Below, piece after piece: positions 1 through 28,689 of a DNA stretch of 32,000 nucleotides. Source of the DNA: an uncultured Bacilli bacterium. Lineage in GTDB: Bacteria > Bacillota_I > Bacilli_A > RF39 > UBA660. The notes under the pieces are model-generated. The model was given only the letters and a program-made list of their open reading frames with translations. It ran no database searches and was not told where the DNA came from. Position numbers and translations under genes: made by a program. Position 1 is the first letter of the stretch; every line of letters starts with the position of its first letter. The stretch lies in NCBI GenBank assembly GCA_947628345.1, contig CANQZM010000006.1:1-32000 (forward strand). The letters run 5' to 3'.

Positions 1-377
1 CTTAACCCCCAATTTATATTATTAGGATATGATGATTTATCTAAATATTTTATATTATTTTTATAAATATATTTTGTCATGTATTTTGCAAATTCTTCAT
101 CTTCTCTAACATTTTCATATTTTAAATTACCATGTTTATCATATCCGCCATATCTAATTTCATTATCAACTATCTGTACATAATCTTTACCATTATTATA
201 ATCTATATCTATATTAGTTATTTCTTCAAATGAACTAGGTTTTTTATAAAAATATCCTGTTTCAGACATATCTGTTTCAGGCATATAATTTTTATTCTTA
301 TTTACTATAACTCCTATACCAATTCCAATTATAATTACTGTTATGATACATAATACGATAATTGAGCCTTTTTTCAT
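1..377 (-). CDS. hypothetical N-terminally membrane-anchored protein (3' end runs off the window)
   Basis: Not in the supplied track. ATG at 375-377 follows a strong RBS (minus strand AGTAGGAGGTAAAGTAAATG). I translated it by hand as MKKGSIIVLCIITVIIIGIGIGVIVNKNKNYMPETD... with no stop before position 1. There is one hydrophobic N-terminal segment. Confidence 0.6.
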   Translation of the reverse strand, partial: MKKGSIIVLCIITVIIIGIGIGVIVNKNKNYMPETDMSETGYFYKKPSSFEEITNIDIDYNNGKDYVQIVDNEIRYGGYDKHGNLKYENVREDEEFAKYMTKYIYKNNIKYLDKSSYPNNINWGL

Positions 378-4732: not shown

Positions 4733-4768
4733 TGAAAAAAAAGTAATCTAAACAATTATAGATTACTT
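4733..4768 (-). terminator. rho-independent terminator closing the long minus-strand operon
   Basis: On the minus strand, the 10-bp stem AAGTAATCTA / TAGATTACTT (4759-4768 with 4741-4750) flanks an 8-nt loop and is followed by TTTTTT. It overlaps the stop codon of the 436-aa gene. Confidence 0.6.
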
Positions 4769-11036: not shown

Positions 11037-11062
11037 CAGTATCACCTACTTCTAACTTACTT

Positions 11063-12853: not shown

Positions 12854-13404
12854 ACTGGCATCACCGTTCCAAATTCTGTTGTCGTTCCCCCATTTAAGAA
12901 ATTATCCAAAACAACTCTCAAATCCTCATTACTAACCTGTGCAGAATTTAACCCACATGTAGCTAATCCATTAATTAGTAATCTTACCTTTTTCTGAATA
13001 ACATCATCATTTTTTTCTTTAAATAATATGTAATATTCTGTATCAACAATATTATTATTAATAAACATTTGTACTTTATCCATATCTTGTAAAATTAATT
13101 TACGAATTGCTGGAACTTGTACATCATTTAATTCTAGTTGTAATTGAGACATATAAACAGATAAATCTACTGGTCTGTCTGCGACTACCAACCAAAATTC
13201 AAAATCAATCATATTATAAAAGTTTTTAAGACTAATTAAAACATTATCTTGCGAAGATGCATCTAATATGAAAATATTACGGGGAGTTATTTTTACTCCT
13301 GTTACTTTATAATTTCCATAAGTATATATCATACTATTTTGAATTGCTCTTACTGGTAGCCAATCTTCTGTCGATCTTCTCCCTTTTTCTTTTGTGTTCG
13401 CCAA
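12850..13404 (-). CDS. VirB4 N-terminal domain encoded as a separate ORF
   Basis: 184 aa. The pattern DWLPVRAIQNSMIYTYGNYKVTGVKITPRNIF matches the conserved start of Firmicutes VirB4-like ATPases as I recall them. The first in-frame start is TTG at 13404, and the next is ATG at 13332. The two ORFs together total about 780 aa, the usual VirB4 length. Confidence 0.65.
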   Translation of the reverse strand: MANTKEKGRRSTEDWLPVRAIQNSMIYTYGNYKVTGVKITPRNIFILDASSQDNVLISLKNFYNMIDFEFWLVVADRPVDLSVYMSQLQLELNDVQVPAIRKLILQDMDKVQMFINNNIVDTEYYILFKEKNDDVIQKKVRLLINGLATCGLNSAQVSNEDLRVVLDNFLNGGTTTEFGTVMPV

Positions 13405-13696
13405 TTCTCACACACCAACCTTTCCATTCATAATTTCTCTGATTTGAGAAAAATTCAAATAGTTCTAAAATTACATTTAATATATTATGATAATAAGGTA
13501 CTGGCACAACTAAGAAACCCGTGACTAGTGCCGGCAGTAATATAATAACAGTAACTAAAGTTGATGACATAGGTAAAATTATCATAAATAGTACTGTAAT
13601 TAAAACTCCTGTACCAAATAAAATTAAATCAAGTGGTCTAAACATACCAAATATTAATTGTCCCCTCTTTGTATTAGCGGGAATTAAATAATTCAT
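13334..13696 (-). CDS. VirB3-like / PrgI-TcpE-like small membrane protein
   Basis: 120 aa, RBS GGGGTGA. Two hydrophobic helices directly upstream of VirB4. The N-terminus NTKRGQLIFGMFRPLDLILFG is typical of this class. Confidence 0.6.
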   Translation of the reverse strand: MNYLIPANTKRGQLIFGMFRPLDLILFGTGVLITVLFMIILPMSSTLVTVIILLPALVTGFLVVPVPYYHNILNVILELFEFFSNQRNYEWKGWCVRIGEHKRKREKIDRRLATSKSNSK

Positions 13697-13751
13697 CTAA
13701 CATCACCCCTATTTATTAATCATCCTTAACATATCTTCAATACTCATTAGT

Positions 13752-15803
13752 TCAATCTTCATCATCTTTTTTCCTAGCATCTCTTAAATGATCATTAGTT
13801 TGCTCTGCCATTGCCTTATCTGCATCAACGATTTTATCCAATTCTTTCCGTCTTTGTTCAGCTCTATGAACACCTCTATTTCCAGGAATTGCAGCAACAT
13901 TACGAAGTGTTTCTCTAGCATTACCAGTTCTAATTGCTTCACGTCCTTCGTGGGTAAGTAAATCTCTAAATTGAGTATTCCTACTGGCACCATGTGGATC
14001 ACGAAGATCACCATGTTTAGCTCTATATGAACCTCTTTTTCCACCAACACGAGCCACTTCTTCTTCAGCAGCTTTAAATTTACTTTCTGCTTTAGAGGCT
14101 ATTTCTTCTGTACTCTGAGCATAATCAAATCCGGATTGCTTCATATCTTCAATCTGAGCAAGTGTAAAGTCTACTCCTTCTTTAATACCATGTTGCATTC
14201 TATACCAATCTTCAAGTGCTTGTTTTTCACGATCAGTAAGTGAATCATAACCACTATTATTAATTTTATCCTTGATATCTTTAGCATAATCAGCTGCTCT
14301 TCTAGCATCTTGTGCTGCCTCTTCTAATTCATCTAAATGTTGTGGACCTAAATCATGATTTTTCAAATATCTTTCAGCTCGATGCATTCTAGATGCAGTC
14401 ATATTTTTATCACCGGTCATTATCTGGGCCATGTCATTTCGACCACCAGTATAACTATCACCTAAACCTGGTGCTTGTTTACCTTGATTATATGCTGCAA
14501 TTTGGGTATTAGCATTTTCCCTAATACTATCGAACGCATCTCCTAAAGTTCCTTTTTCACGTAAGGCACCCAACCCAGCTAAAGCAGCTGAAAGTCCAAA
14601 ATTACTAAGATTACCCTTTAATCCTAAAGAATCTTTAATAAATTTAGGTGCAGTCCTAGCAAAATAGAACAGCCCAATTATAATAAATATTGTTGAAATA
14701 GCACCTACAATGCCTTTATCAATAGGTAAAACTAAACCTCTTTTATTAATAATTTCCTGAACTAAGAATAAAACAAAGAAAATAATAATAAGTCTTATAA
14801 ATAAATCTAAATAAGTTGAAGTTAAGGCCTTAACCCAAGATGCAAAAGATCCATCCTTAGACGATTTAGGATCAATATAGCTAATAATTGGGATAGGTGC
14901 TAGTAATCTTAACACAGCTAACTTTAAAGCACGAACGGCAATATCAACACAAAAGCCCAACATAACTACTAAAACAAATAATCCACATATAAAAGAGATA
15001 ATTGGAGTATAAACAAATAAATAATTATCATCTTTTCCATTAGGACCGTTACACCAATCATTTAAATTATCATTACTTAAGATAGTGTTAACTGTAACGT
15101 AATCACTTTTATACCTTTCAACTTTATATGATTCTTCATCCTTTAAATTACACATATAATTGGCTGGATCAGTTGCTCCGTCTTCAGTTGCATTTGATTT
15201 TAAATTAATTCTAACAAACGTCTTTAAAATAAATGTTGCCAGTTGCTGGGCATTACCGGAATTATCAGAATCAAAAGCTTGTTGCCCAGTTTCGGATACC
15301 GAATCATTACTAGAAACATCACCTAATACTAATTTTCCTAGTACATTATTAGATAAGACACGTGATTGTAATGAATATAAAACCCCAAATAGTAAACCAT
15401 TCTCGTTTAAGTATGCATTATAACTACCTTCAGTTGCATTTGGTATATTTAGAGGTATGATAGCTGTAAATAATGCTAACATAACAATAATCCTACTAAT
15501 CATTTTACCCATTCCAACTTCTTTATCATTAAATCGATCGGGATTCATAACAGTTTGCATCAAAGAAACTGATACTTTAAAAATCATAAATACACCAATT
15601 ATCATTTGTACTCTGCCATAAAAATCTATAATAACATCTGATGAAAAAATTTGGGCATCTGCAATATTAAAAAATATCTGATAAACAATTACTAGTAAGT
15701 TATAAACAACCTTATCAAAAGTAGCTAATAAAAATCTAATTATATCCATCCACCAATGTGTAACTTGGGTATCAGTTTCCATTGAAAGTGCTAACTGAAA
15801 CAT
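13752..15803 (-). CDS. VirB6/TrbL-like polytopic channel protein with a long charged C-terminal domain
   Basis: 683 aa, RBS GGGGTGA. It has at least 6 hydrophobic segments, one large Cys-containing loop and about 270 aa of hydrophilic C-terminus. The position upstream of VirB3/VirB4 fits a VirB6 role. Confidence 0.6.
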   Translation of the reverse strand: MFQLALSMETDTQVTHWWMDIIRFLLATFDKVVYNLLVIVYQIFFNIADAQIFSSDVIIDFYGRVQMIIGVFMIFKVSVSLMQTVMNPDRFNDKEVGMGKMISRIIVMLALFTAIIPLNIPNATEGSYNAYLNENGLLFGVLYSLQSRVLSNNVLGKLVLGDVSSNDSVSETGQQAFDSDNSGNAQQLATFILKTFVRINLKSNATEDGATDPANYMCNLKDEESYKVERYKSDYVTVNTILSNDNLNDWCNGPNGKDDNYLFVYTPIISFICGLFVLVVMLGFCVDIAVRALKLAVLRLLAPIPIISYIDPKSSKDGSFASWVKALTSTYLDLFIRLIIIFFVLFLVQEIINKRGLVLPIDKGIVGAISTIFIIIGLFYFARTAPKFIKDSLGLKGNLSNFGLSAALAGLGALREKGTLGDAFDSIRENANTQIAAYNQGKQAPGLGDSYTGGRNDMAQIMTGDKNMTASRMHRAERYLKNHDLGPQHLDELEEAAQDARRAADYAKDIKDKINNSGYDSLTDREKQALEDWYRMQHGIKEGVDFTLAQIEDMKQSGFDYAQSTEEIASKAESKFKAAEEEVARVGGKRGSYRAKHGDLRDPHGASRNTQFRDLLTHEGREAIRTGNARETLRNVAAIPGNRGVHRAEQRRKELDKIVDADKAMAEQTNDHLRDARKKDDED

Positions 15804-15832: not shown

Positions 15833-16270
15833 TTATTTTAAACCGCAATTAGCATTATCGGCTGTAATACCAAATAATCCTAATAGAATTTGAGTTAAGA
15901 ATGGTACAAAAAATAAAAGTAATGCAGCAATCAATCTGTATACAAATTTTGTTTGTGCCTTTTTCATATTTTCTTCATCCGATGTAATAATTGCTTTAGC
16001 AAAATCAATACTTCCTAAAACAATTGCTATCATAGGACCCAATATTTTTATATAATTTAGTAATCGTTGTATCAACCAAGCTACTGAATTTTCATCATTT
16101 TCAGCATCTCCTAAAACATCTTTACATGTACTTAGACCTGTATTTGCAAATTGCTTTTCAATTTGTACAGGACCATCTATTTTCAATTCCTTGGCTTTGA
16201 CATCATATGTAACAAATATTGTTATTAATATTAAAAATAAAAAAGCGATTTTTCCATACTTTATGAACAT
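15833..16270 (-). CDS. VirB2/TrbC-like pilin-type protein (signal peptide plus two TM helices around a charged loop)
   Basis: 145 aa. Signal peptide ending VKA-KE. TM1 ILGPMIAIVLGSIDFAKAII, loop TSDEENMKKAQTK, TM2 LIAALLLFFVPFLTQILLGLFGI. It is a paralog of 16370-16708. Confidence 0.6.
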   Translation of the reverse strand: MFIKYGKIAFLFLILITIFVTYDVKAKELKIDGPVQIEKQFANTGLSTCKDVLGDAENDENSVAWLIQRLLNYIKILGPMIAIVLGSIDFAKAIITSDEENMKKAQTKFVYRLIAALLLFFVPFLTQILLGLFGITADNANCGLK

Positions 16271-16309
16271 AACTAAGCCACATCCTCATTTACATAATGT
16301 ATCATCATA

Positions 16310-16338
16310 AGTATAACAAAAAAAAAAAGAAATATCAA
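16310..16338 (-). promoter_or_regulatory. sigma-A-like promoter for the 145-aa VirB2-like gene (-35 TTGATA, 17-nt spacer, -10 TATACT)
   Basis: Minus strand reads TTGATA (16338-16333), TTTCTTTTTTTTTTTGT, TATACT (16315-16310). RBS GAGGA lies downstream. Confidence 0.45.
16318..16328 (-). repeat. homopolymer: T11 on the coding strand (A11 on plus), inside the promoter spacer
   Basis: Counted directly: 11 consecutive A on the plus strand at 16318-16328. Confidence 0.95.
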
Positions 16339-16369
16339 TTTATATTTCATTTTTTTTAATATATTTCGA

Positions 16370-16708
16370 TTAAGCTGCTTGTTCCCAACAATCTGCCCAA
16401 CTATTAGAACTACCTCCAATATTTTCATCATTAGAAGTACCAACTAGTCCCATAATAACTGTTACTAAAGTAACTATAAAGAAAATTAAAACAGCATATA
16501 TACAACGTTTAATCAATCTACTTTGGGCTGCTTTTACTTCCTTGTCATCACTAGAAATAACTGCTTTACCTAAATCAATAGTTCCCATTACAATTAAAAC
16601 AATTGGAATACCTATTTGAATTATTGGTAAAAGTCCCTTTCTAACTAATCTAACAATTGACGTTAATCCTCTACATGGATCTCCGGCACCTATTTGAAAT
16701 AATTCCAT
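16370..16708 (-). CDS. VirB2/TrbC-like pilin-type protein, second paralog
   Basis: 112 aa, RBS AAGGAGAGG. TM1 LLPIIQIGIPIVLIVMGTIDLGKAVI, loop SSDDKEVKAAQSR, TM2 IYAVLIFFIVTLVTVIMGLVG. It shares the G.ID..KA.I.SD.....K.AQ pattern with the 145-aa protein. Confidence 0.6.
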   Translation of the reverse strand: MELFQIGAGDPCRGLTSIVRLVRKGLLPIIQIGIPIVLIVMGTIDLGKAVISSDDKEVKAAQSRLIKRCIYAVLIFFIVTLVTVIMGLVGTSNDENIGGSSNSWADCWEQAA

Positions 16709-16730: not shown

Positions 16731-16750
16731 ACTATTGTAAACTATTGTAG
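16731..16750 (-). repeat. tandem 10-nt direct repeat ACTATTGTA(A/G) x2 in the promoter region
   Basis: Plus strand actattgtaa actattgtag at 16731-16750. Each copy carries a TACAAT hexamer on the minus strand. Confidence 0.9.
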
Positions 16751-16763
16751 GTATCTTTGTCAA
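16734..16763 (-). promoter_or_regulatory. sigma-A-like promoter for the 112-aa VirB2-like gene (-35 TTGACA, 18-nt spacer, -10 TACAAT)
   Basis: Minus strand has consensus TTGACA at 16763-16758 and TACAAT at 16739-16734. It lies in the 76-nt gap after the TadZ-like gene. Confidence 0.5.
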
Positions 16764-16784: not shown

Positions 16785-17777
16785 TTACCTTTTACCAAAA
16801 ATACCAAATATTTTATTACCTTCACTTTTTCTAGCGGCAGTATTATCAATTAATCCCAACCTATACAATAAATCATGTAACATTGGATTTTTGGCTCTTT
16901 CATCTAATGCAGGAATACTGTAAAAGAATTTTACAGATGCTTCATATTCCAATTCATTGATATCTTTATTAGATAACATACATTTATTTAGCACTATTTT
17001 TTTATTTTGTAGTTTTTCAAAGACTGTGCGATTGGTTTTTACTAACTTATTTAACATGACTGTGCTAGGTTCAAGTAAATATAAAATTTCATCACACATA
17101 GTATCTGTTTTACAATTATTTAAATCAATAATTACTACTATAGGATGATCTAACCCTGCTATTTTTTTCATTAACTCGCTTTCATTAACTGAAAACATAT
17201 TTTTGTCATTGAAATATACAAAATCCTTTTTATTTACTTCAATTGCATATACTGAGTTACCATAAATATCTGTTAATTCTTTTTTTAACATATATGATAA
17301 AGTAGTTGCCCCAGCATGTTCAGTAACATTTTTTATTCCTAGAATTTTATTACTTCTACCAGCGCCACTTACCCTATTACTGATTTCTGCAGATGCATTA
17401 TTAAGTTGTTGAATTTTTTCTACATCTTTATAAGTATTAGGCTTTTCAATTAATTGTTTTATAGCATTTATATTATTAGTAAAATTATAAATACCCATTG
17501 ATACCAAATTAGATAAATAATTACCTGAAGTACATACTTCATCAGTAAGTACTAGAATTAATTTACTTTCTCCCAGTCCTATAGCAAGTTGCTTTATATT
17601 TTGTATATCTTTATAATTTTTTATAGCTGTAATATCTAAAATCATTCTATCAAAAAAGAAGTCTTTGAATATCGCAACTAATTCATTAACTTCAAATTCA
17701 CCAGTGACATCTTTTATAACTTCGATATCAAGATTAGATAATGAATCTTTTCTTTCATTAGCTACTACAACATTCAA
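16785..17777 (-). CDS. TadZ/CpaE-like protein: receiver-like N-domain plus ParA/MinD-like domain with a degenerate Walker A
   Basis: 330 aa. TTG start with RBS AAGGAG 8 nt upstream. The segment ILGIKNVTEHAGATTLSYML sits where the deviant Walker A (KGGxGK[ST]) would be. Hydrophobic beta-strand patterns such as VVIIDLN are ParA-like. Confidence 0.4.
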   Translation of the reverse strand: MNVVVANERKDSLSNLDIEVIKDVTGEFEVNELVAIFKDFFFDRMILDITAIKNYKDIQNIKQLAIGLGESKLILVLTDEVCTSGNYLSNLVSMGIYNFTNNINAIKQLIEKPNTYKDVEKIQQLNNASAEISNRVSGAGRSNKILGIKNVTEHAGATTLSYMLKKELTDIYGNSVYAIEVNKKDFVYFNDKNMFSVNESELMKKIAGLDHPIVVIIDLNNCKTDTMCDEILYLLEPSTVMLNKLVKTNRTVFEKLQNKKIVLNKCMLSNKDINELEYEASVKFFYSIPALDERAKNPMLHDLLYRLGLIDNTAARKSEGNKIFGIFGKR

Positions 17778-17790
17778 AATATCAACTCCT

Positions 17791-18267
17791 TTAATGTGAT
17801 TTTATAGCTTTAGTTGTTCCATTAACTTGAAAAATTTTCATGTTAGGTATAAATTTATTAAGTAGAGGAATATCAATATTAACAGCTGTAGTTACTGTAT
17901 AGTATTTTACTGGTAATTCTCCAGTACTACGATTTTGTTCTACAACACAAAATCCCAAAGTATTGTCACAATATGGATCACTACAACTTATTCCTGTAGA
18001 ACCATTACATTCAGCAGGAACATCTGCATTTAATTGAGTACTTAAACTATAACCGATTGATTTCCTATATCCATCAATAGTTTTTGTTAATACACTGTTG
18101 GATTCTCCAACACCTACTCCTTCATACTGCTCAATCAAATTAATTATTTTATTTTTGTATCTAAAGGCTTTATTATAGTTTGCCGCAAAAGCTAAATAAC
18201 CATTTACAATCACGATAAATACCACAATAAACCCAATATTGACTATTCCACCTAACGCATCACGCAT
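17791..18267 (-). CDS. pilin-like (TadE/minor-pilin-like) N-anchored protein with a 4-Cys C-terminal region
   Basis: 158 aa. A short basic leader MRDALGG precedes the hydrophobic helix IVNIGFIVVFIVIV. The Cys cluster is CNGSTGISCSDPYCDNTLGFC. It lies directly downstream of the Flp-like ORF. Confidence 0.4.
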   Translation of the reverse strand: MRDALGGIVNIGFIVVFIVIVNGYLAFAANYNKAFRYKNKIINLIEQYEGVGVGESNSVLTKTIDGYRKSIGYSLSTQLNADVPAECNGSTGISCSDPYCDNTLGFCVVEQNRSTGELPVKYYTVTTAVNIDIPLLNKFIPNMKIFQVNGTTKAIKSH

Positions 18268-18313
18268 ACTTAATCACACCCTATGAAACTATAATTTTGT
18301 ACTTTTTAAAGTA

Positions 18314-18466
18314 TTATTTAGGCTTACCTTGACTAATAGAATTCCATTGTTGATTAATTGATGTCTTGATATTTGGCCACATAAATGTCAAAAAGAATGC
18401 ACTAACTGCGGCGATAGCTATCAATGTAATAACCGTTAAATTTAATTCTCCTGATGCTGCCTTCAT
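18314..18466 (-). CDS. Flp-like small pilin candidate (50 aa), absent from the ORF track
   Basis: Hand translation gives MKAASGELNLTVITLIAIAAVSAFFLTFMWPNIKTSINQQWNSISQGKPK. It has a short basic leader ending in Gly, a ~22-aa hydrophobic helix and a short polar tail. RBS AAAGGAAG. It sits between the TadC and pilin-like genes behind a strong promoter. Confidence 0.5.
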   Translation of the reverse strand: MKAASGELNLTVITLIAIAAVSAFFLTFMWPNIKTSINQQWNSISQGKPK

Positions 18467-18501
18467 ATACAATATACACTTCCTTTCATCTTATATAAAT
18501 T

Positions 18502-18530
18502 ATTATACCAATTTTTTTTAATTTTAACAA
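18502..18530 (-). promoter_or_regulatory. strong sigma-A-like promoter for the Flp-like ORF (-35 TTGTTA, 17-nt spacer, extended -10 TGgTATAAT)
   Basis: Minus strand reads TTGTTA (18530-18525), AAATTAAAAAAAATTGG, TATAAT (18507-18502), with TG at 18510-18509. Confidence 0.55.
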
Positions 18531-18554
18531 TATAGTTTTTGTATATAATTTTTA

Positions 18555-19340
18555 TTATGATAAATTAAACATACCCATCATTGAAATTAAGACTATAACC
18601 ATAACCGAAATACCTGTTACAACAAGCATAATCATTGTTAAACTTTCCATATGTCCTAAACGTTCTTTATATTTAATTTCACGAGCTTTATTTTGTAAAT
18701 TTGACACCGTTCTAGAAAACATCATTAAACGTTCTTGTTTATTTTCTTGAGAACCAATACCTAAACGATAAAGTAATCTCATCATTCGCATTGAATCTCG
18801 AACTGGATAAGTATTAGAAAATTCCATATAAGGATCAATACTAGAATCACCAGCATTAACTCTTTCTACAATTTTTCTTAATCCAGGTTTAAAAATTTCT
18901 GGAGCATCATCAATTGATTTACCAATGGCAACAGGAACAGTATAATGCTGTATCAAAATTTCTAAGCTCTTTAAATAATATGGCAACATAATGTCAATTT
19001 CATGTAAATGAGCTTTATAATACTGTTGTAATTGTAAATATGGTAATTTAAAAACTCCAAACATTATAGCTATAGTAATAACAATATTTATTAAGGAAAT
19101 ATCACCTAAAATGAGTATTAAGAAAATAAATCCAACTATCAACCCTGTTGTTATTCTTTTTCTAAATAATAAATCTGGTACTACATCCTCTCCATAACGA
19201 GCATATAATAAGAAATCATAGTCTTCTTCTCTTAAAACTTGAAAATATTTTTCATTATCAATCAAAAATTTTTTACCATCAACTGTTTTATTATAAAATA
19301 ATATAAAAACTATAATGGCACAAACTATAATAATTTCCAT
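18555..19340 (-). CDS. tadC: TadC-like platform protein (T2SS-F / GspF family)
   Basis: 261 aa. TM helices flank a helical cytoplasmic domain (YLKSLEILIQHYTVPVAIGKSIDDAPEIFKPGLRKIVERVNAG...), with a C-terminal TM. It is coupled to TadB by a TAATG overlap. Confidence 0.65.
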   Translation of the reverse strand: MEIIIVCAIIVFILFYNKTVDGKKFLIDNEKYFQVLREEDYDFLLYARYGEDVVPDLLFRKRITTGLIVGFIFLILILGDISLINIVITIAIMFGVFKLPYLQLQQYYKAHLHEIDIMLPYYLKSLEILIQHYTVPVAIGKSIDDAPEIFKPGLRKIVERVNAGDSSIDPYMEFSNTYPVRDSMRMMRLLYRLGIGSQENKQERLMMFSRTVSNLQNKAREIKYKERLGHMESLTMIMLVVTGISVMVIVLISMMGMFNLS

Positions 19341-20233
19341 TACTCAGCCCCCACATTCTCATTATAATATTTTTCTCCTCTCATGAGAAAGATACTATTA
19401 ACTATTGCTGCTCCATGCATCAATATTTTAACTATTGGCTTTTCTAAAAGGAGCAAATATGATTCTCTTCCTAATAAAAGTTGAGTTAACATTAATAAAA
19501 AATATAACATTATTCCAAATTGTAGGAATTGTTTATGGAAAGTTGCTCTATCTTGTCTATCACGATAAACACTTTCTACTAACATATCAATATCTTGTTG
19601 CATATTTTCCAAACTATCTGCTGAATTTCTCGCACCTTCTTTTGTAATTTGTAAAAATAATTGATGCATATTTTTAACAATATAATATGGATATAAATTA
19701 GACATATATTTTAGAGCCTCATCAATTGTTCCATTTTGGTAAGATAACTCTATCATATGATTAACATCAGTTTTTACGGGATCTTCTAAAACACCTGAAT
19801 CTCTAACTCCTTCAATTGATTTTACAAATGACTGAGTTGTTGCAAATTCCATAATAGTGTTTGAGGTATATACTTGAACTTGTTCAAAAATAAATTCACT
19901 GTAAATTCTTTTACATCTTAAATATGATAGATAAGGAATTACCATAATAACTGCAACGACATAAATTACACTAATTACAACATTATAGAAATACAAATAA
20001 CTAATTACTGCGGTAAAAGTAGAAAATACAGCTACTTGAATAGCGTATTGTCTCACAGTATACTCTTTTCCCAATTGCTTTGTCTTTTCTCTAACTACTT
20101 TAAATGAATAAGGAGCAAATTTTTCATAGACAGTTCCGACTTTATCAGTAATAAATTTACCTACATTTTGTCCTTCGTAACTACGATATAAAATTACTAC
20201 TCCTGTTATAAGTAGTAGAAGAATCAATTCCAT
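19340..20233 (-). CDS. tadB: TadB-like platform protein (T2SS-F / GspF family)
   Basis: 297 aa with the same architecture. It has an N-terminal TM, an internal TM pair, the helical domain (FVKSIEGVRDSGVLEDP...IDEALKYMSNLYP...ITKEGARNSADSLENM) and C-terminal TM helices. Confidence 0.65.
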   Translation of the reverse strand: MELILLLLITGVVILYRSYEGQNVGKFITDKVGTVYEKFAPYSFKVVREKTKQLGKEYTVRQYAIQVAVFSTFTAVISYLYFYNVVISVIYVVAVIMVIPYLSYLRCKRIYSEFIFEQVQVYTSNTIMEFATTQSFVKSIEGVRDSGVLEDPVKTDVNHMIELSYQNGTIDEALKYMSNLYPYYIVKNMHQLFLQITKEGARNSADSLENMQQDIDMLVESVYRDRQDRATFHKQFLQFGIMLYFLLMLTQLLLGRESYLLLLEKPIVKILMHGAAIVNSIFLMRGEKYYNENVGAE

Positions 20234-20248
20234 AACTAATCACCCCTT

Positions 20249-21553
20249 TTACTGATTGGTTTGATTTGGTGTAGCCATAGCTACATTAACCATATTGTTA
20301 GATACATTTTGTACTCCTCCCAATGCTGAATTTGCAGAAATAGGAGATTGAATTGTACTAATATTTGGTACATTCACTGTTTGAACAGGAGTTGCAACTG
20401 GCATTGCTACTTGTGTAGCAGGAGCTGGTTGAGAAACTGCCTGAGGTTGAGCAGCCTGAGCATTAGCCATGTTTGTATGTGTTGCCTGTTCTCCTTCTTT
20501 CATTTTACTAGTTATTGCATTTATATCAATATTTTGATTTTCCAAATATTCAATTAAATGAGCACTAGGTTTATTTTGCACAGGAGGTTTTCCAAATACT
20601 TTACGATAAATAGTATGTGACTGTGGATTATTATTATCATCCACATAAAATTCAACTACTTCATCTACTTCTCGATGAAATTTTCCATATTCTTTACTAT
20701 AATAAGCTTTAATATGTACCCCCAACTGAATATATCTATAAATAGTTGACAAAAATTGATTAACATCTAAATCAGTTTCCATCAAACTGTATAAACGATA
20801 TGGTATAGCACTGGCTTTATCCGCATGTATTGTGGATAAAATATTATGTCCTGATGAAATTGAATTACGAACCGCACTTACAGCTTCAGCACTACGAACT
20901 TCTGATAATAAAATCCACTTTGGATTTTGTCTCATACATGTAACTAAAACATCAGAATAACTAGCTACATTATTTGTTTTCATAGCTACAATATCTCGCT
21001 GTGGAAAAATTTTATCCAAGTGAAGTTCCAAAGTATCTTCAATGGTAATAACTTTTTCTGTTTCAATTGTATGACTAGCTAAATATTTAATAAATTCTGT
21101 TTTTCCTGAACCTGTTTCTCCAGCTACCATAATATTACAATGTCCTTCTACACACTTAATCAAAATATCATGAATATCAGCTGTAAAATAATCTTCTTGT
21201 AATAATTTATTTTTCTCTAATCTAATTTTTGCTGGTGTTTTACGAATAACACAGGCAATTCCGTTAGTAGCAATCGACTGATGAACGAAATTAAAACGTA
21301 ATTCAGCCGATTCGGCATCTAGAAAAGGTTTTGCATTATTAAAGGTAGTACCCATAACATTTGAACATTGAAAAGCAAGTTTTTCCATAAATTCTGGAGT
21401 TAGACCTGGAATTTCAATACGTTGAGAGCCTTGAGTTAAGGAACGAATCCAAATCTGACCACCATTACAAAATGAAATATCAGTAATATCATCATTATCT
21501 AGTAATGGTTTTAAAGGACCAAAATCAAGCTTATCAAAAACATTTTCTGTCAT
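20249..21553 (-). CDS. tadA: TadA/CpaF-type secretion ATPase (T2SS-E / VirB11 superfamily) with a Gln/Ala/Pro/Val-rich C-terminal tail
   Basis: 434 aa, RBS GGAGG. Walker A VAGETGSGKTEF, Walker B region ILLSEVRSAEA and His box GHNILSTIHA. Confidence 0.85.
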   Translation of the reverse strand: MTENVFDKLDFGPLKPLLDNDDITDISFCNGGQIWIRSLTQGSQRIEIPGLTPEFMEKLAFQCSNVMGTTFNNAKPFLDAESAELRFNFVHQSIATNGIACVIRKTPAKIRLEKNKLLQEDYFTADIHDILIKCVEGHCNIMVAGETGSGKTEFIKYLASHTIETEKVITIEDTLELHLDKIFPQRDIVAMKTNNVASYSDVLVTCMRQNPKWILLSEVRSAEAVSAVRNSISSGHNILSTIHADKASAIPYRLYSLMETDLDVNQFLSTIYRYIQLGVHIKAYYSKEYGKFHREVDEVVEFYVDDNNNPQSHTIYRKVFGKPPVQNKPSAHLIEYLENQNIDINAITSKMKEGEQATHTNMANAQAAQPQAVSQPAPATQVAMPVATPVQTVNVPNISTIQSPISANSALGGVQNVSNNMVNVAMATPNQTNQ

Positions 21554-21588
21554 AAACTGACTACCTCCTATTTATTCTTTGTTATATA

Positions 21589-22392
21589 TTATTCTGTCCA
21601 CTCTGTAACTCTATTAATAAAGTCTCTTAAATCATTACTACTTAATTTTAAATCCCCTGGTTTATCTTTTAAGCTTTCATCAGTTGGAACAGGGATTAAT
21701 TCAGAGTCATATGCTCTTAGGAAACCAGCCTTTTTAAGTAATATATAATAGTCAGATGGCACAGCAAAAATTATCATGCTAGGTTCTCCTTTTTCATTAA
21801 CATTGGCAAATACATTATTACCAGCACTATCTAATACAGCTAAAACTTCAACATTTTCAATTAGTTTACCAACCATTATTTTATCTGTTGTTGTAATTTG
21901 TTGTCCCTCTTCAATAGCATTCATAGCCTTCAAATAAATATCAATATAGTTACCTGGAACAATTGAATTACCATAAGTAGAATTAATATCTACTGATAAA
22001 TTATATAGTACATAACCATTTGGATAGTCATAAATAATCTTATCAGGTAATTGATCTTTTGTTACAACTACAGATTTATAAAACAAACTACCTGCTGGAA
22101 TAATTGTATCGGTTCTAGCAAATTTATCTAATACTTCACTTCTATTAGTATAAGCAGCTCCATCACTAACAGTTTCACTAGAAACATTTTTTTCATCAAT
22201 CATATCATCAGTAATCTGAGTTCCTGGTGATATATCTACTTTAGCATATGGAACTTTAATTGGAGTAATAGCTTTATTTACTCGTGAATTATAACCAAAG
22301 TACAAAACAAAGACAGCTGCTACAATTCCTAGAATTGTAACAGTGTTTTTGTTCGACAAAAATTTTTTTATACCAACACTCAAACTTCCCAT
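21589..22392 (-). CDS. CpaB/RcpC-like Flp pilus assembly protein (N-terminal TM plus SAF-like domain)
   Basis: 267 aa, RBS GGAGGAG. The TM helix is followed by IKVPYAKVDISPGTQITDDMI... and ...IIPAGSLFYKSVV, which matches the SAF/CpaB pattern. Confidence 0.55.
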   Translation of the reverse strand: MGSLSVGIKKFLSNKNTVTILGIVAAVFVLYFGYNSRVNKAITPIKVPYAKVDISPGTQITDDMIDEKNVSSETVSDGAAYTNRSEVLDKFARTDTIIPAGSLFYKSVVVTKDQLPDKIIYDYPNGYVLYNLSVDINSTYGNSIVPGNYIDIYLKAMNAIEEGQQITTTDKIMVGKLIENVEVLAVLDSAGNNVFANVNEKGEPSMIIFAVPSDYYILLKKAGFLRAYDSELIPVPTDESLKDKPGDLKLSSNDLRDFINRVTEWTE

Positions 22393-22409
22393 TTTACTCT
22401 CCTCCTAAC

Positions 22410-22853
22410 CTAGTTAGCTCTTATATCAGAAACAAGTTGTTCTGCTAATACATCTTTTTTGTTATTACTTTCGATAATCATATCCAATCTAGTAGTAATA
22501 TCTATATCTGATTCATAGAAAGTTTTACTAGTAGCACTTTTTACTTCTACACTAACTTTAGGTGGAATTTCGTTGACATCGTAGAAACTAATTTGATAGT
22601 ATCTACGATCATCAACGCTTCGTGCAAATCTTTTTAGAAAACTTTCTGCAAATTTTTCTTTATCCATTCTAATTACTGATTGCTCTCTATAATAACTTAA
22701 ATCAACTGCATCTTCTAAAGCTGCTTCTGTTGTCTCTTTTAATAGATAATAATCTAGTTCTTGACCCGTGGTATAATTTTGAATAACATTTATGACACCT
22801 AAAGCCATTAGGCTTAATAATATAATTCCTACTGTTAACATTGCTTTATTCAT
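22410..22853 (-). CDS. hypothetical N-anchored small protein
   Basis: 147 aa, RBS GGTGA. One N-terminal TM helix and no recognisable motif. It could be a VirB8-like or pseudopilin-like accessory protein. Confidence 0.3.
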   Translation of the reverse strand: MNKAMLTVGIILLSLMALGVINVIQNYTTGQELDYYLLKETTEAALEDAVDLSYYREQSVIRMDKEKFAESFLKRFARSVDDRRYYQISFYDVNEIPPKVSVEVKSATSKTFYESDIDITTRLDMIIESNNKKDVLAEQLVSDIRAN

Positions 22854-22864
22854 ATATTCATCAC

Positions 22865-25800
22865 CTACTTAATATTATTCTTTCCACGATTATTTCTAAA
22901 TTTATCAGTGGTAATCGTTCCTATACTTGCAAAATTATCCTGACTCATGGACCTATCATACATATTATAAGCATATAATCCAGGAATAATCTCTTTATCG
23001 ACTTCAAATTTACCACCGAATTCTAAGCTAAGTGCTTTTAAGTCATTAATATCATCGGTATCTAAAATAATTCTGAAATCTAAATTTTCATCAGTATAGG
23101 TTCCTGATTCTCCCTTACCATAACAGTCTGGACAATCAGCAGAGTTTGGTATTATAGATCTTGAGTAATCAACTGGATCAACATCATAGCCACTAGCTTT
23201 TAATTTTGTAGCTACTACCTCATCATTAGGTGCAGATAATTTAGCAGAACTTCCCCAGTTATAACCACGTAATCGGTTATTAGGGAACATATTATCAAGT
23301 GAAACAACTCTTATATCGTAGTTCAAAACCGTAGAAATATCATTTCCATCTTGTTTATCAGTATCTGAAGGGCAATCTTCTCTATTACCTTCATCCCCAC
23401 GATAGCAATTTGGACCGTCTGTTGTTTTATTATAAACAGAATAGAAACAACTTAAATTTATATGCCAATTATATTTACCAAATCCCTTAGTATTTGTTCC
23501 TAAATTAGCATCTATTGTAGCACCAGTACTACTAGGAGTAAAATCAGTTGGATACTTATCGGCAGCATACTTATCAACAACTGCCCAATCCCACCATTTT
23601 TTATTAACTTCTGCAGCATCATAAGTAGTACAAACAAATTGACTTTTATTTCTATAACCATCTTTTTTACATTCATAAGATAACTCACCAGTTTTTAAAT
23701 TAATTAAAGTACCAGGGAAAGTTATAGTTGTTTGATAATCAATTGGATTACCACCTAAATCTTTAATATTATTATCATCATAACATTGTCCAAAAATACC
23801 TTCTTCAGATGGATCATTTTCAAATGCAGGTATGAACATTGAAGGTTTAGGTCCATCTTGGTTAGTAATGTCACACATATTAGAATCATCTGAACCTGTA
23901 TTTTTATGTAAATCTGTATGTCCTGTGGAACTTTGACTATTACCATTTTGACTATTTATCTTAATATCAAAATTAGTAGTTGTTTCTGTTGTATCACAAG
24001 CACTTGAAGTTTTACATTTTTGTAAAGCATCATTTATATTTTTAAGACTAGCTTTAACTCCTTTAGTATATTGTTTACTAGTTAATGCATCATCTTTATC
24101 ACAACCATAGAATGAACAACTCATAGTACATTGCCAAGAATTAATTTTTGATCTTTGAGTCTTTATTCCATTATCACTTATATAATATTTTCTATTCTCA
24201 CGTCCATTAGCTACAAAGAATCCTTTAATTAAATCTTTAGTGGTTTCAACATCACGAACATAAAATGGTGCAGCACGAGCTATTTGCATACCAATATCTT
24301 CTACTTCGTTAGCTTTATCTTTTGCTTTTGTAACGCCATCATCCATTTTCCAAGTACATTCACCATCCTCAGTACAATTGAAATGACCCATTGGGTATAA
24401 AGTTTTTGCTTTATAATAAAATTCTGCACATTTTTCTATGTCTGCATCTTCCACAAATCCCCCATTTCGATATATATCACTATTTTCACATATATTATTC
24501 TTATAATAATTTTCATAATTTTTTTCAACTAAATCCTTTTTTGCTTTTACTGTTAACTTAACAATACTACTATTACTATTATCATATATAACAGGTGTTG
24601 TTATAGTGTTCTGAGTTTTTTTAGTACTTGCTGTTTTAGATGTATCATATTTATCTTTATATACTTTGTCATAACATTTATTAATACATTTTTGACTATA
24701 TTGTCCATTATCACAGGAATTTACACAATTATCAAAATCTTGTGAAGGCCCTGCTTGGGTTTTTTGTTTATTGTCTTCACATGCAGGCATTGCAGAACAC
24801 ATATCTCGCTTATTCAAAACATCATTTAATTTATTAAGAATTTGTTCAGTATTATAGTCAACACCACACTCTACTTTACTTTTTACAGTTACTCGATATT
24901 GAAAACATAATCCTGCTTTTACAGTCTGAGGAGGACTATATACTACTGTCAAATGTTCATAACAAGTAGAGTCACAAACCTTTACTGTATCAAGCTTTTC
25001 AACTTGATCTGTATCTTCATTCCATCCTACTAATTTAGCAGACTGTGAACTGGTTTCAGCATATAAATAACTTTTTTGTCCAGAACCAGCTTTATATTTT
25101 CCAGTATGATTAACTGTGTCGTATTCCATATTAGCACTATCATATTCACAATATAATTTTTGATCTCTTACATTAACACTATTAGCAGTTTTTCCTTCTG
25201 TTTTAGAAGAATCTGTAGAATTATAAATATAATAATCATCAACTTGATTTTTTAATGCATTCATTGAAGCTGTAACCGCAGCAACACTAGTTCCTGTAGA
25301 ACCATTTCTAATACGATAGTACATTTCCAATAAAGCATCAGACACTTTTTCAATTTCGTCATCATCTAAATTAAATGGAACTTCTTTATCTTCACAATAA
25401 TGTAAAATTCTACTATAATAATCAGAAATCCATGTATCTTTAACAGCTTGAGATTCATTTTTTACTGAAAACTGGGGATTTGATGAATGTATACCCTCAT
25501 ATGCATTGCTACATTTTTCTCCTTTATGCTCTCTATTTTTATAATTAGTTAAAATAGTTCCACTTTCAGCACCAGGATTTTGAATAAATGCACTTGCGGC
25601 TGTACCTGTTAATTCTATATCATAAGCAGTACTATTTACTCTAACTATATCACCTGCTTCACATTTAACTTTCTTATTATTTTTATTGATGAGCTCATAA
25701 TTCTGATCCTGTAAAACTATAACAATAATTTCTTTTCCTGGATCTAACTCATAAAAATAATCATCGTCCTTTAATATTTCATTCTTTACTCTAGCACCAG

Positions 25801-26122
25801 AATTTTTAATTTCCTCTTTAGTCAAATCATCAGCATTTTCCAAAGAACCGTATGGACCTTCAAATATAATTAATCTATATTTATAGGTATCCGAGTTTTT
25901 AACGGTAATTTTAACTTCTCTTTTTTCAACGCTATTCCAATACTTTCCACTTCTATATCCAGCAGAACGCTGATATGTTCCTGGATCAATTGTTATACCT
26001 ATTTTATCTCGACATGTTTTTCTTGCAGATGCTTTGGTTACTACAGCATATGCACTTTTAGGCAGAAACACAATAGTACAAATAATTATAATTAATAAAA
26101 TTTTACCCCTCAATTTATTCAT
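22865..26122 (-). CDS. giant secreted Cys-rich protein (~1085 aa), function unknown, candidate adhesin or tip component
   Basis: Signal peptide ...FLPKSAYA-VV. I counted about 33 Cys in the mature part, often in close pairs (CDSTC, CSAMPAC, CVNSC, CINKC, CTEDGEC, CTMSCSFYGC, CPDC). I place the start at the ATG at 26122, 9 nt after AAGGAG, rather than at 26131. Confidence 0.75.
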   Translation of the reverse strand: MNKLRGKILLIIIICTIVFLPKSAYAVVTKASARKTCRDKIGITIDPGTYQRSAGYRSGKYWNSVEKREVKITVKNSDTYKYRLIIFEGPYGSLENADDLTKEEIKNSGARVKNEILKDDDYFYELDPGKEIIVIVLQDQNYELINKNNKKVKCEAGDIVRVNSTAYDIELTGTAASAFIQNPGAESGTILTNYKNREHKGEKCSNAYEGIHSSNPQFSVKNESQAVKDTWISDYYSRILHYCEDKEVPFNLDDDEIEKVSDALLEMYYRIRNGSTGTSVAAVTASMNALKNQVDDYYIYNSTDSSKTEGKTANSVNVRDQKLYCEYDSANMEYDTVNHTGKYKAGSGQKSYLYAETSSQSAKLVGWNEDTDQVEKLDTVKVCDSTCYEHLTVVYSPPQTVKAGLCFQYRVTVKSKVECGVDYNTEQILNKLNDVLNKRDMCSAMPACEDNKQKTQAGPSQDFDNCVNSCDNGQYSQKCINKCYDKVYKDKYDTSKTASTKKTQNTITTPVIYDNSNSSIVKLTVKAKKDLVEKNYENYYKNNICENSDIYRNGGFVEDADIEKCAEFYYKAKTLYPMGHFNCTEDGECTWKMDDGVTKAKDKANEVEDIGMQIARAAPFYVRDVETTKDLIKGFFVANGRENRKYYISDNGIKTQRSKINSWQCTMSCSFYGCDKDDALTSKQYTKGVKASLKNINDALQKCKTSSACDTTETTTNFDIKINSQNGNSQSSTGHTDLHKNTGSDDSNMCDITNQDGPKPSMFIPAFENDPSEEGIFGQCYDDNNIKDLGGNPIDYQTTITFPGTLINLKTGELSYECKKDGYRNKSQFVCTTYDAAEVNKKWWDWAVVDKYAADKYPTDFTPSSTGATIDANLGTNTKGFGKYNWHINLSCFYSVYNKTTDGPNCYRGDEGNREDCPSDTDKQDGNDISTVLNYDIRVVSLDNMFPNNRLRGYNWGSSAKLSAPNDEVVATKLKASGYDVDPVDYSRSIIPNSADCPDCYGKGESGTYTDENLDFRIILDTDDINDLKALSLEFGGKFEVDKEIIPGLYAYNMYDRSMSQDNFASIGTITTDKFRNNRGKNNIK

Positions 26123-26876
26123 CTTTATCATCTCCTTCCAATATTTTCTTTATTTCTTTATAATTACTTTTTTCTATTACTTTATAATTTTTAACTAATT
26201 CGTTTTTTCTAACTAATCTTGCATCTACTACAAAGGAATAGTCAGCATTACCAAAGAATCTTGTACAAGTAACTAAAGTAATCAATTTATCACTATCATT
26301 AACATCTACTTTAAAATCAAAGTAACTTTTTTCTTTAGTATATTCAATATAATCTTCTACATCATTTTGATCAATATCTTCTAATTCTAGATCTTCTTCT
26401 TCCTGAAGAGAAACACCATATATTTTAAATAAATAGTTTTTATTATTTATTGTATACTGAATATATTTATTTTCTTTTACAAAATCATAATATATATATC
26501 CCATTAATTGTTCAAATCTAGCATGTTCTTTATTTCCAATTAGTGGTTTACTAGAAACATTTCTCATATTATGAGATAAAATAACTACTCTATTAACAAG
26601 TTTTTTATGATTAGTAAATGTCCATCCTAAATCATAACTAGGATCACTAATATCATCAACATCATAGTAATACATAATTGGAATATCAATATTAGTTCCT
26701 TGAACTCTTAGCCATCCTAAGGGATCTGCATCATTTTTATTAGAGGTAAAGGTTTTTATATTATTTAGTCGATTTTGAACTTTATAATATGGCTTTAACA
26801 TAATAACCGAAGTTATACATAGTATTACTACCAAGAGTAATATTATTTTTTGTTTTTTATTTTTTTTTCCCTTCAT
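26115..26876 (-). CDS. class B-like sortase (N-terminal TM anchor)
   Basis: 253 aa. GWLRVQGTNIDIPIMY, His motif LSHNM, Cys motif LITLVTCT and Arg in VVDARLV. Its stop overlaps the start of the giant protein gene by 8 nt. Confidence 0.8.
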   Translation of the reverse strand: MKGKKNKKQKIILLLVVILCITSVIMLKPYYKVQNRLNNIKTFTSNKNDADPLGWLRVQGTNIDIPIMYYYDVDDISDPSYDLGWTFTNHKKLVNRVVILSHNMRNVSSKPLIGNKEHARFEQLMGYIYYDFVKENKYIQYTINNKNYLFKIYGVSLQEEEDLELEDIDQNDVEDYIEYTKEKSYFDFKVDVNDSDKLITLVTCTRFFGNADYSFVVDARLVRKNELVKNYKVIEKSNYKEIKKILEGDDKDE

Positions 26877-26893
26877 ATTGCTTACATCCTTTA

Positions 26894-28678: not shown

Positions 28679-28689
28679 ATTAAATCTCC

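Follow-up and report, generated by a model that had tools for sequence, protein, structure and literature searches.

We analysed a 32-kb stretch of DNA (the window; positions 1 to 32,000 of contig CANQZM010000006.1, ~28% G+C) from an uncultured gut bacterium of the order RF39 (Bacilli), a lineage with small genomes, in which genes resembling those of a Tad (type IVc) pilus lie among the genes of a type IV secretion system (T4SS). The Tad-like module spans positions 16785-22853 on the - strand and extends to the gene for a DUF5411 protein. The reading we favour, and hold to be moderately probable, is that this module is a strongly diverged Tad-derived motor which builds a short filament for the T4SS, and that it is intrinsic to the T4SS itself, a monoderm system of the pLS20/CD1115 class, rather than being a pilus locus of its own. 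The gene content of the module, its remote homologies, its linkage to T4SS genes on plasmids and in RF39 chromosomes and strong purifying selection on the cluster were observed; that a filament forms, and what role it would play, we infer. An earlier description of this DNA, made from its letters and open reading frames (ORFs) without database searches and referred to here as the sequence-only reading, had proposed a near-complete Tad set inside a T4SS gene order. All the ORFs it listed are present on the - strand at the positions it gave, and its account of the component anatomy proved largely right. Its family labels were over-confident, however: the proteins are far more diverged than the labels imply, the platform and TadZ-like proteins being recognisable by profile-profile comparison and fold alone, and its interpretation is partly supported.

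Components of the Tad-like module

The module comprises the following features, given in the order in which they are read:

22410-22853 (- strand): DUF5411 protein, 147 aa, with an N-terminal transmembrane (TM) anchor; first gene of the module (Pfam DUF5411, 3.6e-49)
21589-22392 (- strand): CpaB/RcpC-like protein, 267 aa, with an N-terminal TM segment (RcpC, SAF and TIGR03177 matches; hhalign)
20249-21553 (- strand): secretion ATPase, 434 aa, from a Firmicute clade that is CpaF/VirB11-like; its low-complexity C-terminal tail is variable (T2SSE match; neighbour-joining tree)
19340-20233 (- strand): platform protein 1, 297 aa, ~4 TM segments, TadB/GspF-like, a homologue of pLS20 gene 38 (hhalign, Foldseek)
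18555-19340 (- strand): platform protein 2, 261 aa, ~4 TM segments, a paralogue of platform protein 1 and homologue of pLS20 gene 39 (hhalign)
18502-18530 (- strand): promoter-like element TTGTTA-17-TG-TATAAT, upstream of the 50-aa ORF (motif scan and conservation)
18314-18466 (- strand): 50-aa pilin-like protein, MKAASGELNLTVITLIAIAAV... (alignment; Pilin_N E 0.066)
17791-18267 (- strand): 158-aa protein with an N-terminal anchor (MRDALGG...), candidate minor subunit (conservation profile)
16785-17777 (- strand): TadZ-like putative scaffold, 330 aa, with a receiver-like N-domain and a ParA/MinD-fold C-domain (alignment, AlphaFold2 model, Foldseek)

The ATPase carries both motifs on which the sequence-only reading relied, the Walker A GETGSGKTE and the His box GHNILSTIHA, and its match to Pfam T2SSE (1.8e-26) places it in the T2SSE family. 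Against solved structures in the PDB it scored 73 bits with CpaF, 68 with FlaI, 60 with archaeal GspE and 52 with VirB11; against NCBIfam it scored 110 bits with VirB11, 100 with conjugation-associated TadA and 92 with TrbB, all far under cut-off (250 bits for the VirB11 model TIGR02788). The alignments to CpaF and FlaI covered residues 5-256 and 5-302, respectively, whereas the best stretch of the VirB11 model covered only residues 113-289. We then placed the enzyme in a crude bootstrapped neighbour-joining tree of 19 sequences, for which CpaF, VirB11, TrbB and TraJ were taken from plasmids. It grouped with p37 of pLS20 and the enzymes of pXO2 and Listeria pLIS8 (63%) and next with the CpaF-like enzyme of pXO1 (59%), apart from both canonical CpaF (71%) and VirB11/TrbB (61%). 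In the tree, the enzyme, labelled CpaF/TadA in the sequence-only reading, falls neither with canonical CpaF nor with VirB11/TrbB. We conclude that it is neither a clean CpaF nor a clean VirB11, and place it in a separate Firmicute clade, plasmid members of which have been published as 'VirB11'. Membership of VirB11/TrbB proper was rejected on the TIGR02788 score below cut-off, the position outside that clade in the tree and the presence of two GspF-like partner proteins. The closest plasmid matches of the ATPase are those of pLS20-family plasmids, at 35% identity. Its C-terminal ~85 residues (20249-20500) form a low-complexity tail rich in Q, A and P that differs among orthologues.

The two platform genes are coupled by TAATG, as had been noted, the stop codon of 19340-20233 overlapping the start codon of 18555-19340. 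Neither product matched T2SSF, the profile by which the sequence-only reading had proposed to judge its GspF-family assignment, in Pfam or NCBIfam even at E 0.1, nor did these scans point to another meaningful family, and on direct matching the assignment falls. BLASTP of the two proteins against one another and against p38 and p39 of pLS20 gave nothing significant, and only profile methods brought out their relationships. The 297-aa protein has only 229 detectable relatives in 1.84 billion representatives; one of the 25 members of its family alignment matches T2SSF (2.3e-5), a member that a scan of ten distant relatives did not recover. In profile-profile comparison, the 297-aa family matched the pLS20 p38 family (hhalign 98.3%, E 2e-14), an unnamed pXO1 protein adjoining CpaF (98.1%, E 8e-14) and bona fide TadB from Sphingobium and Streptomyces (P 1.8e-4), where a benchmark of true TadB against TadC with the same thin profiles gave 2.3e-5. 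The 261-aa family, to whose profile three distant orthologues were added, matched the 297-aa family as a paralogue (95.8%, E 7e-9 over 139 columns), the pLS20 p39 family (88.6-93%) and TadB (P 1.5e-4). An AlphaFold model of the 297-aa protein, built on the 25-sequence alignment, reached a predicted local distance difference test (pLDDT) score of 82, and its top Foldseek matches in the PDB were the cytoplasmic domains of EpsF (2vmb, probability 0.97) and OutF (5nbg, TM-score 0.73, 3.1 Å), with E-values that are not significant. Profile searches with the platform and TadZ-like families against PDB sequences returned no match. On this remote evidence from profiles and models, we accept the two proteins as putative single-domain GspF-like platform paralogues.

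The call of a CpaB-like protein was borne out through its relative on pXO1. Its direct matches all lie under the curated cut-offs (RcpC 4e-5, SAF 0.008, TIGR03177 4e-8), and comparison with the annotated CpaB of pXO1 gave hhalign 99.5% (E 1.4e-22); furthermore, its homologue in a more distant, low-GC relative (L176) has a Pfam RcpC match. By these profile comparisons, the RcpC/CpaB component of a Tad system is present and the assignment is solid. The DUF5411 gene occupies the same place, ahead of the genes for CpaB and the ATPase, in a second distant relative (L178), and DUF5411 proteins have been reported beside CpaF and PilC/GspF in Clostridia.

The 330-aa protein had been called a TadZ-like relative of ParA, and of this call the two-domain fold and architecture stand, but not a match in sequence: the protein has no sequence-level match in Pfam, NCBIfam or the PDB. 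Its alignment shows a conserved GxKNxTxHAGATT at the position of the deviant Walker A of ParA, from which the Walker A lysine is absent. An AlphaFold2 model built with database homologues (pLDDT 81) has two domains and was matched by Foldseek at probability 1.0 to the ParA protein 3cwq, ParF, MinD, HypB and BcsQ, and also to response-regulator two-domain proteins; its match to TadZ of Eubacterium rectale (3fkq) had an E-value of 6e-3. The model thus suggests the architecture of TadZ, a receiver-like domain joined to a ParA/MinD fold, and with its degenerate P-loop the protein probably does not hydrolyse ATP.

We also analysed the two small ORFs that had been taken for pilins. The most likely start codon of the 50-aa ORF is the ATG at 18466, which is preceded by a Shine-Dalgarno sequence (AAGGAAG); the product of the ORF then begins MKAASGELNLTVITLIAIAAV. 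The Flp identity suggested for it did not hold up: it has neither a Flp_Fap profile match nor the G/XXXXEY motif, and its best match was Pilin_N at E 0.066. Among 73 aligned sequences (the window and 72 orthologues), the N-terminal 21 residues are near-invariant and the tail is variable, and its TGEL motif is kept in L178, whose neighbouring genes have only 27-36% identity to the window. A TTGnnn-16..18-TAnnnT element ahead of the ORF is kept in 70 of the 72 orthologous spacers, which have otherwise diverged, and a GAAAGGA Shine-Dalgarno sequence is visible in the 30 orthologous spacers inspected. The promoter scan of the window returned 64 sites where 52 were expected; for this reason only two intergenic sites were used, and one of these is backed by conservation. 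The second, a sigma-70-like promoter at 16734-16763 (- strand), lies just upstream of the first VirB2-like gene. Likewise, the 158-aa protein could not be confirmed as a Tad pilin, as it has no TadE match in Pfam, NCBIfam or hhalign; in hhalign against Streptomyces TadE, it and the DUF5411 protein gave P 0.74 and 0.16. Its conservation profile comprises an N-terminal anchor, a variable, Cys-containing middle and a conserved C-terminus. It has a homologue in L178 (E 7e-5), where a paralogue of the family forms the N-terminus of a protein of at least 1305 aa (E 2e-19), a pattern seen in modular pilins. Together, these comparisons suggest that the 50-aa and 158-aa proteins are pilin-like in anatomy only and nevertheless behave like filament subunits.

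A prepilin peptidase is absent from the window, as had been observed: Pfam scans of every ORF of at least 95 aa found no Peptidase_A24, and no polytopic protein of the window contains a GxGD motif. The 50-aa subunit might be used uncleaved or be processed in trans by a housekeeping ComC/PilD-type enzyme. Three other routes were considered and rejected. The sortase-like enzyme (26115-26876; TLVTC motif, class B model 4.3e-12) is implausible in this role because sortases target C-terminal sorting signals and no window protein has one, none ending in an LPXTG-type sequence. Cleavage of the 158-aa protein by signal peptidase I at AFA|A was discarded, the site not being conserved among orthologues. 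A hidden A24-like domain in a 520-aa polytopic protein encoded nearby was discarded as well, given that this protein has no Pfam match and no GxGD motif.

Setting within the secretion gene cluster

Nearly all genes of the window lie on the - strand, and those between 30252 and 4767 form a tight co-directional array, with spacing from a 71-nt overlap (ORFs as listed) up to 99 nt. Along the - strand the order is a surface-protein block, the Tad-like stretch, two VirB2-like genes, a VirB6/TrbL-like gene, VirB4 in two ORFs, a wall hydrolase and VirD4. VirD4 is followed by a 436-aa cluster gene and then directly by a housekeeping flank of rhodanese, VTT/DedA, RmuC and TrpRS genes; the opposite housekeeping flank consists of genes for M23 and M29 peptidases. 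Outside the module, the array contains:

22865-30252 (- strand): surface block encoding a 520-aa polytopic protein, a 594-aa Ig-like protein, a sortase-like enzyme and a 1088-aa secreted Cys-rich protein (Pfam Sortase 5.4e-7; Bact_surface_Ig-like 3.4e-18; class B sortase model 4.3e-12)
16370-16708 (- strand): VirB2-like T4SS pilin candidate, 112 aa (Pfam T4SS_pilin 0.017)
15833-16270 (- strand): VirB2-like T4SS pilin, 145 aa (Pfam T4SS_pilin 5.7e-7, 30 bits, above cut-off)
13752-15803 (- strand): VirB6/TrbL-like polytopic channel protein (TrbL_4 4.6e-6; MMCAP2_0566 family 6.8e-7)
11063-13404 (- strand): VirB4 ATPase in two overlapping ORFs of 184 and 596 aa (Mbov_0397 VirB4 model)
9093-11045 (- strand): cell-wall hydrolase in the VirB1 role, with SpoIID/LytB and C39-like domains (Pfam SpoIID 5.3e-9; Peptidase_C39_2 0.009)
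6101-8251 (- strand): VirD4 coupling protein of the CD1115 family (conju_CD1115 307 bits, cut-off 250; Pfam T4SS-DNA_transf 4.8e-53)

With a CD1115-family VirD4, VirB4, TrbL_4 and SpoIID proteins and homologues of p37, p38 and p39, the sequences identify this as a monoderm T4SS of the pLS20/CD1115 class, here with an extended Tad-like module and domesticated in RF39 chromosomes. VirB4 matches the CD1110 and Mbov_0397 models, both under cut-off; its two ORFs correspond to positions 97-276 and 295-893 of the 894-position Mbov_0397 (mycoplasma integrative and conjugative element, ICE) model and overlap by 4 nt. The split recurs in each of the 31 orthologous loci whose VirB4 ORF is complete, 25 of them with the same 4-nt overlap. 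The two VirB2-like (T4SS_pilin) genes at 15833-16708 stand in a monoderm T4SS, and pXO2 likewise has an annotated TrbC/VirB2 gene at the same relative position; published text describes Gram-positive T4SS classes as lacking virB2 homologues. VirD4 ends in an acidic low-complexity tail (6101-6500) terminating in DDDDDDEFFDDFFDN, which is variable among orthologues. The 436-aa (4767-6077) and 594-aa (26894-28678) proteins have similar C-terminal endings, GNG..NPYII and GSG..SPYII, which suggests that they are related surface modules.

The sequence-only reading had placed the Tad set inside the T4SS gene order. The genes are indeed embedded and co-directional, but they should not be taken for an intrusion, as the layout is shared with pLS20, pXO2 and Listeria pLIS8. 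On these plasmids, the ATPase gene is followed by genes for two membrane proteins of 245-277 aa and then for a small protein of 114-120 aa, all within the conjugation region, and pLS20 and pXO2 encode an extra protein of 47-48 aa. Since the conjugation operons of these plasmids encode this ATPase together with the two membrane proteins and small TM proteins, an ATPase with two membrane proteins is the norm for the pLS20-type T4SS class. A comparative paper on pLS20 lists gene 37 as a putative VirB11 and genes 38-41 as unknown. Our literature searches found no papers that tie pLS20-type genes to Tad platforms, and nothing relevant on RF39 with T4SS or on CpaF with VirB4 in Firmicutes.

We next asked how widely the cluster occurs. 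Relatives of the ATPase were found in at least 567 species-representative genomes, and the 80 best ATPase loci, at 71-87% identity, were kept for comparison. The genomes are labelled uncultured Bacilli, Tenericutes, 'Mycoplasma sp. CAG:877' and Candidatus Faecimonas, with some contigs of up to 765 kb, and are apparently RF39: Candidatus Faecimonas corresponds to the GTDB genus CAG-877 of the order RF39, one species having a genome of 1.4 Mb with 28% G+C. RF39 is predicted to retain a peptidoglycan wall, and the lineage is related to Mycoplasmatales. Synteny from the 520-aa protein through VirB4 is kept in 59-80 of the related loci. Median identity across these loci is 82% for the ATPase, 69-72% for the platforms and 69% for the 50-aa ORF; the surface-protein block is syntenic but fast-evolving (28-43%, with 28% for the 1088-aa protein at 22865-26131), and the far left flank of the window is not conserved. 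Of the 34 long metagenome contigs compared, most show the order of the 436-aa, rhodanese, DedA, RmuC and TrpRS genes, either complete or partial. In L176, the genes for RcpC, platform 1, platform 2, a TadZ-like protein (39% identity) and a VirB6-like protein follow one another directly at positions 9209-14539, in the neighbourhood of ribosomal protein genes.

These data bear on the nature of the cluster. Pairwise identity matrices of VirB4/VirD4 and TrpRS/RmuC correlate (r 0.79-0.86; Mantel p at most 5e-4, three pairs tested), and VirB4, with a mean pairwise identity of 85%, is better conserved than the adjoining TrpRS (77%). Pfam and NCBIfam scans of the 32-kb window proteins found no relaxase, integrase or replication (Rep) domain, and the region had no blastn match among plasmids. 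Membership of an ICE or a conjugative plasmid was rejected on the lack of relaxase, integrase and Rep in the 32 kb, the conserved synteny with housekeeping genes and the co-divergence with those genes. By these comparisons, the cluster is chromosomal, vertically inherited and under purifying selection. It could still be that the cluster is the remnant of a decaying ICE in which the Tad-like genes have lost their function, and this would account for the weak profile matches and for the lack of a peptidase and a relaxase; the absence of an integrase and the several proteins with no detectable family would agree with it. We regard this explanation as highly improbable, however, since the conservation data contradict it. 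The genes are all intact, at least 567 species genomes contain orthologues, TrpRS is less conserved than VirB4, distances among T4SS genes correlate with those among housekeeping genes (r 0.85), and promoter-like elements are conserved, as are Shine-Dalgarno sequences in the spacers inspected.

The linkage data speak similarly to the idea that the module makes an adhesion pilus of the Tad type, such as those of Bifidobacterium or Eubacterium, and that it merely adjoins the T4SS while working independently of secretion. Tad loci of monoderms that combine these component types but have no T4SS do exist, for example on a Streptomyces plasmid, a Clostridial system with DUF5411, CpaF and PilC has been described, and in L178 the module is followed by a large adhesin-like protein. 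Against this, the module stands among the T4SS genes in a single tight, co-directional array with gaps of 1-99 nt, the TadZ-like gene lying directly before the VirB2-like genes, and the linkage recurs in the unrelated replicons pLS20, pXO2 and pLIS8 and in at least 59 RF39-like loci. The adhesion pilus fits these data poorly, as the ICE remnant fits those on conservation, and we consider it improbable.

A proposed filament motor and its rival, a possible VirB11-type energiser

In the mechanism we propose for a Tad-derived motor, the hexameric ATPase would dock on the two GspF-like paralogues, with the TadZ-like protein and its degenerate P-loop serving as a scaffold and the CpaB-like protein spanning the wall. 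The motor would pull the abundantly expressed, hydrophobic 50-aa protein out of the membrane, with the 158-aa and DUF5411 proteins as minor subunits, and the subunits would polymerise into a short filament or pseudopilus through the peptidoglycan. Such a filament could provide a contact or piston function for the adjoining VirB4/VirB6/VirD4 machine; the 50-aa protein would be matured by an A24 peptidase encoded elsewhere, or would need none. This reading draws on the contiguity of the module, which is co-directional with the VirB2-like, VirB6, VirB4 and VirD4 genes in the window and in at least 59 related loci.

Several observations weigh against a filament motor. Direct Pfam and NCBIfam searches identified neither the platforms nor the TadZ-like protein nor either pilin candidate, and the homology of the platforms to bona fide TadB reaches only P ~1e-4. 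The ATPase clade is unresolved relative to CpaF and VirB11 in the crude 19-sequence tree (54-63% bootstrap), and published work on pLS20 names the gene 37 ATPase VirB11. L176 has neither the ATPase nor the small ORFs beside its CpaB, platform and TadZ-like genes. The 50-aa protein (MKAASG-ELNLTV) lacks the Flp G/XXXXEY motif and a glutamate at +5, and cleavage after Gly6 would leave Glu as the mature N-terminus, which is atypical for A24 substrates. No prepilin peptidase was found in the window or in the 10 kb on either side of L176 and L178. Moreover, the two VirB2-like pilins of the cluster could be the real filament subunits.

The missing peptidase, the N-terminus without Flp features, the VirB2-like genes and L176 would all fit a module that acts as a VirB11-type energiser rather than as a pilus machine. 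In that case the ATPase would be the third ATPase of the T4SS, like VirB11 or TrbB, anchored by the polytopic proteins, with the small TM proteins acting as channel or stator parts; no Tad-type filament would form and no prepilin processing would be involved. VirB11 is the best NCBIfam score of the enzyme, with TrbB also scoring, and the pLS20 literature treats gene 37 in this way; the window has no A24 peptidase and no Flp motif, the VirB2-like pilins could be the client of the ATPase, as in diderm systems, and L176 retains platform genes with no adjoining ATPase. However, known VirB11 and TrbB enzymes work without GspF-type partners, whereas here two GspF-like paralogues, a CpaB-like and a TadZ-like protein accompany the ATPase, and its N-domain gives a better alignment with CpaF and FlaI than with the VirB11 model. 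The clade also holds the pXO1 enzyme of a Tad-like locus (CpaB, AAA ATPase, CpaF, two platform-like ORFs and three 67-aa ORFs), and the conservation pattern of the 50-aa ORF and its private promoter are as expected of a polymerising subunit. We therefore rate the energiser as unlikely, while regarding it as the main competitor to the Tad-derived filament motor.

Related systems and implications

The closest systems are those of the pLS20 family, which also includes pXO2/pAW63-type plasmids and pLIS8. They share with the window the ATPase clade, two platform homologues and small N-terminal TM proteins, and carry this set in a T4SS whose VirD4 is of the CD1115 family and whose VirB6-like protein is large. 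In contrast to the window, whose cluster is chromosomal and has no relaxase in 32 kb, these plasmids encode relaxases and are mobile (MOBP typing); the stretches examined have no annotated CpaB or TadZ-like gene beside the ATPase, and their small proteins lack the TGEL motif of the 50-aa protein.

The pXO1 Tad-like locus of Bacillus anthracis resembles the window in its CpaB (99.5%), its ATPase of the same clade (59% bootstrap, weak), a homologous platform, a ParA-like AAA ATPase and small pilin-like ORFs. It differs in its canonical order of CpaB, TadZ, CpaF, platforms and pilins, and in pilin candidates that are 67 aa long with long leaders, unlike the 50-aa protein; the annotation of its TadZ-like protein is AAA family ATPase. 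The pXO1 locus (L085, 7050-7962) also contains an unlisted ~224-aa ORF resembling TadC, flanked by the annotated platform-like gene on one side and the three 67-aa ORFs on the other, which may be a pseudogene or merely absent from the PLSDB gene table. Canonical Tad/Flp systems (Aggregatibacter tad, Caulobacter cpa), for which plasmids of Sphingobium and Streptomyces supplied the examples compared, are built of component types for which the window encodes candidates: a CpaF-like ATPase, two single-domain platforms, CpaB, a two-domain TadZ-type scaffold, a ~50-aa pilin candidate and larger N-terminally anchored proteins. Unlike them, the window has no Flp motif, no TadE/TadG profile match, no TadV/CpaA peptidase and, as expected in a monoderm, no secretin. 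Its platforms are too diverged for Pfam T2SSF, its TadZ-like gene comes after the pilin genes and not before the ATPase, and the module sits inside a T4SS.

Type IV filament machines that work with VirB4/VirD4-type proteins for contact or transfer, as we propose for the window, are known from the IncI R64 thin pilus and PAPI-1. These are diderm type IVb pili with recognisable PilQ/R/S/V/U, encoded as separate gene blocks, and they have their own prepilin peptidase. Mycoplasma ICEs belong to a host lineage related to RF39, and the best NCBIfam VirB4 model for the window is their Mbov_0397 family (361 bits, below cut-off), to which the VirB6-like protein adds a weak match to MMCAP2_0566, also below cut-off. 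The window differs from that VirB4 model in its split into two ORFs. Mycoplasma ICEs are mobile and use a DDE recombinase, and we know of no report of a CpaF/platform module in them.

Saccharibacteria and other Patescibacteria offer a parallel of another kind. They have reduced genomes with a chromosomal, monoderm-type T4SS, VirB2-like pilins and usually no relaxase; this T4SS is essential for epibiotic growth, and its co-option for a non-conjugative function has been proposed. The window shares the chromosomal location, the monoderm type, the small genome, the VirB2-like pilin genes and the lack of a visible relaxase. Patescibacteria are another phylum, however, in which no embedded CpaF/platform module has been reported and type IV pili are a separate machine, and the essentiality of their T4SS was demonstrated by genetics.

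A broader reading, which we put forward tentatively and consider possible, would take in the whole 25-kb cluster (4767-30252). It would be a hybrid in which a T4SS and a Tad-like system have been domesticated and passed on vertically, a core organelle of RF39 (genomes ~1.4 Mb) for contact-dependent exchange between cells rather than plasmid conjugation, with the 50-aa 'TGEL' protein founding a new class of type IV filament subunit that has no dedicated A24 peptidase. What is exchanged might be chromosomal DNA, as in mycoplasma chromosomal transfer, or material that is taken up, and the organelle would parallel the essential T4SS of Patescibacteria. Gram-positive conjugation systems have been described as having no pilus or similar structure, and the formation of mating contacts has been called largely elusive; if the hybrid organelle is real, the presence of its module in pLS20, pXO2 and pLIS8 would mean that Gram-positive T4SSs of this class have a pilus-like structure after all.

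The findings may thus matter beyond RF39. Should the 'VirB11' of pLS20-class systems indeed be accompanied by TadB/TadC-like platforms, CpaB, a TadZ-like scaffold and polymerisable small subunits, then well-studied plasmids contain an unannotated candidate filament machine, and pLS20 genes 38-41, listed as 'unknown', are directly testable in Bacillus subtilis. The position of the ATPase clade between CpaF and VirB11 may bear on the origin of VirB11 from type IV filament ATPases. In RF39, the machinery is fixed in the chromosomes with no relaxase in the window, and its VirB4 is more conserved than TrpRS in hundreds of species belonging to this uncultured gut order. This conservation points to a lineage-defining device for cell-cell interaction, comparable to the T4SS of Patescibacteria, and makes the cluster a concrete handle on RF39 biology.

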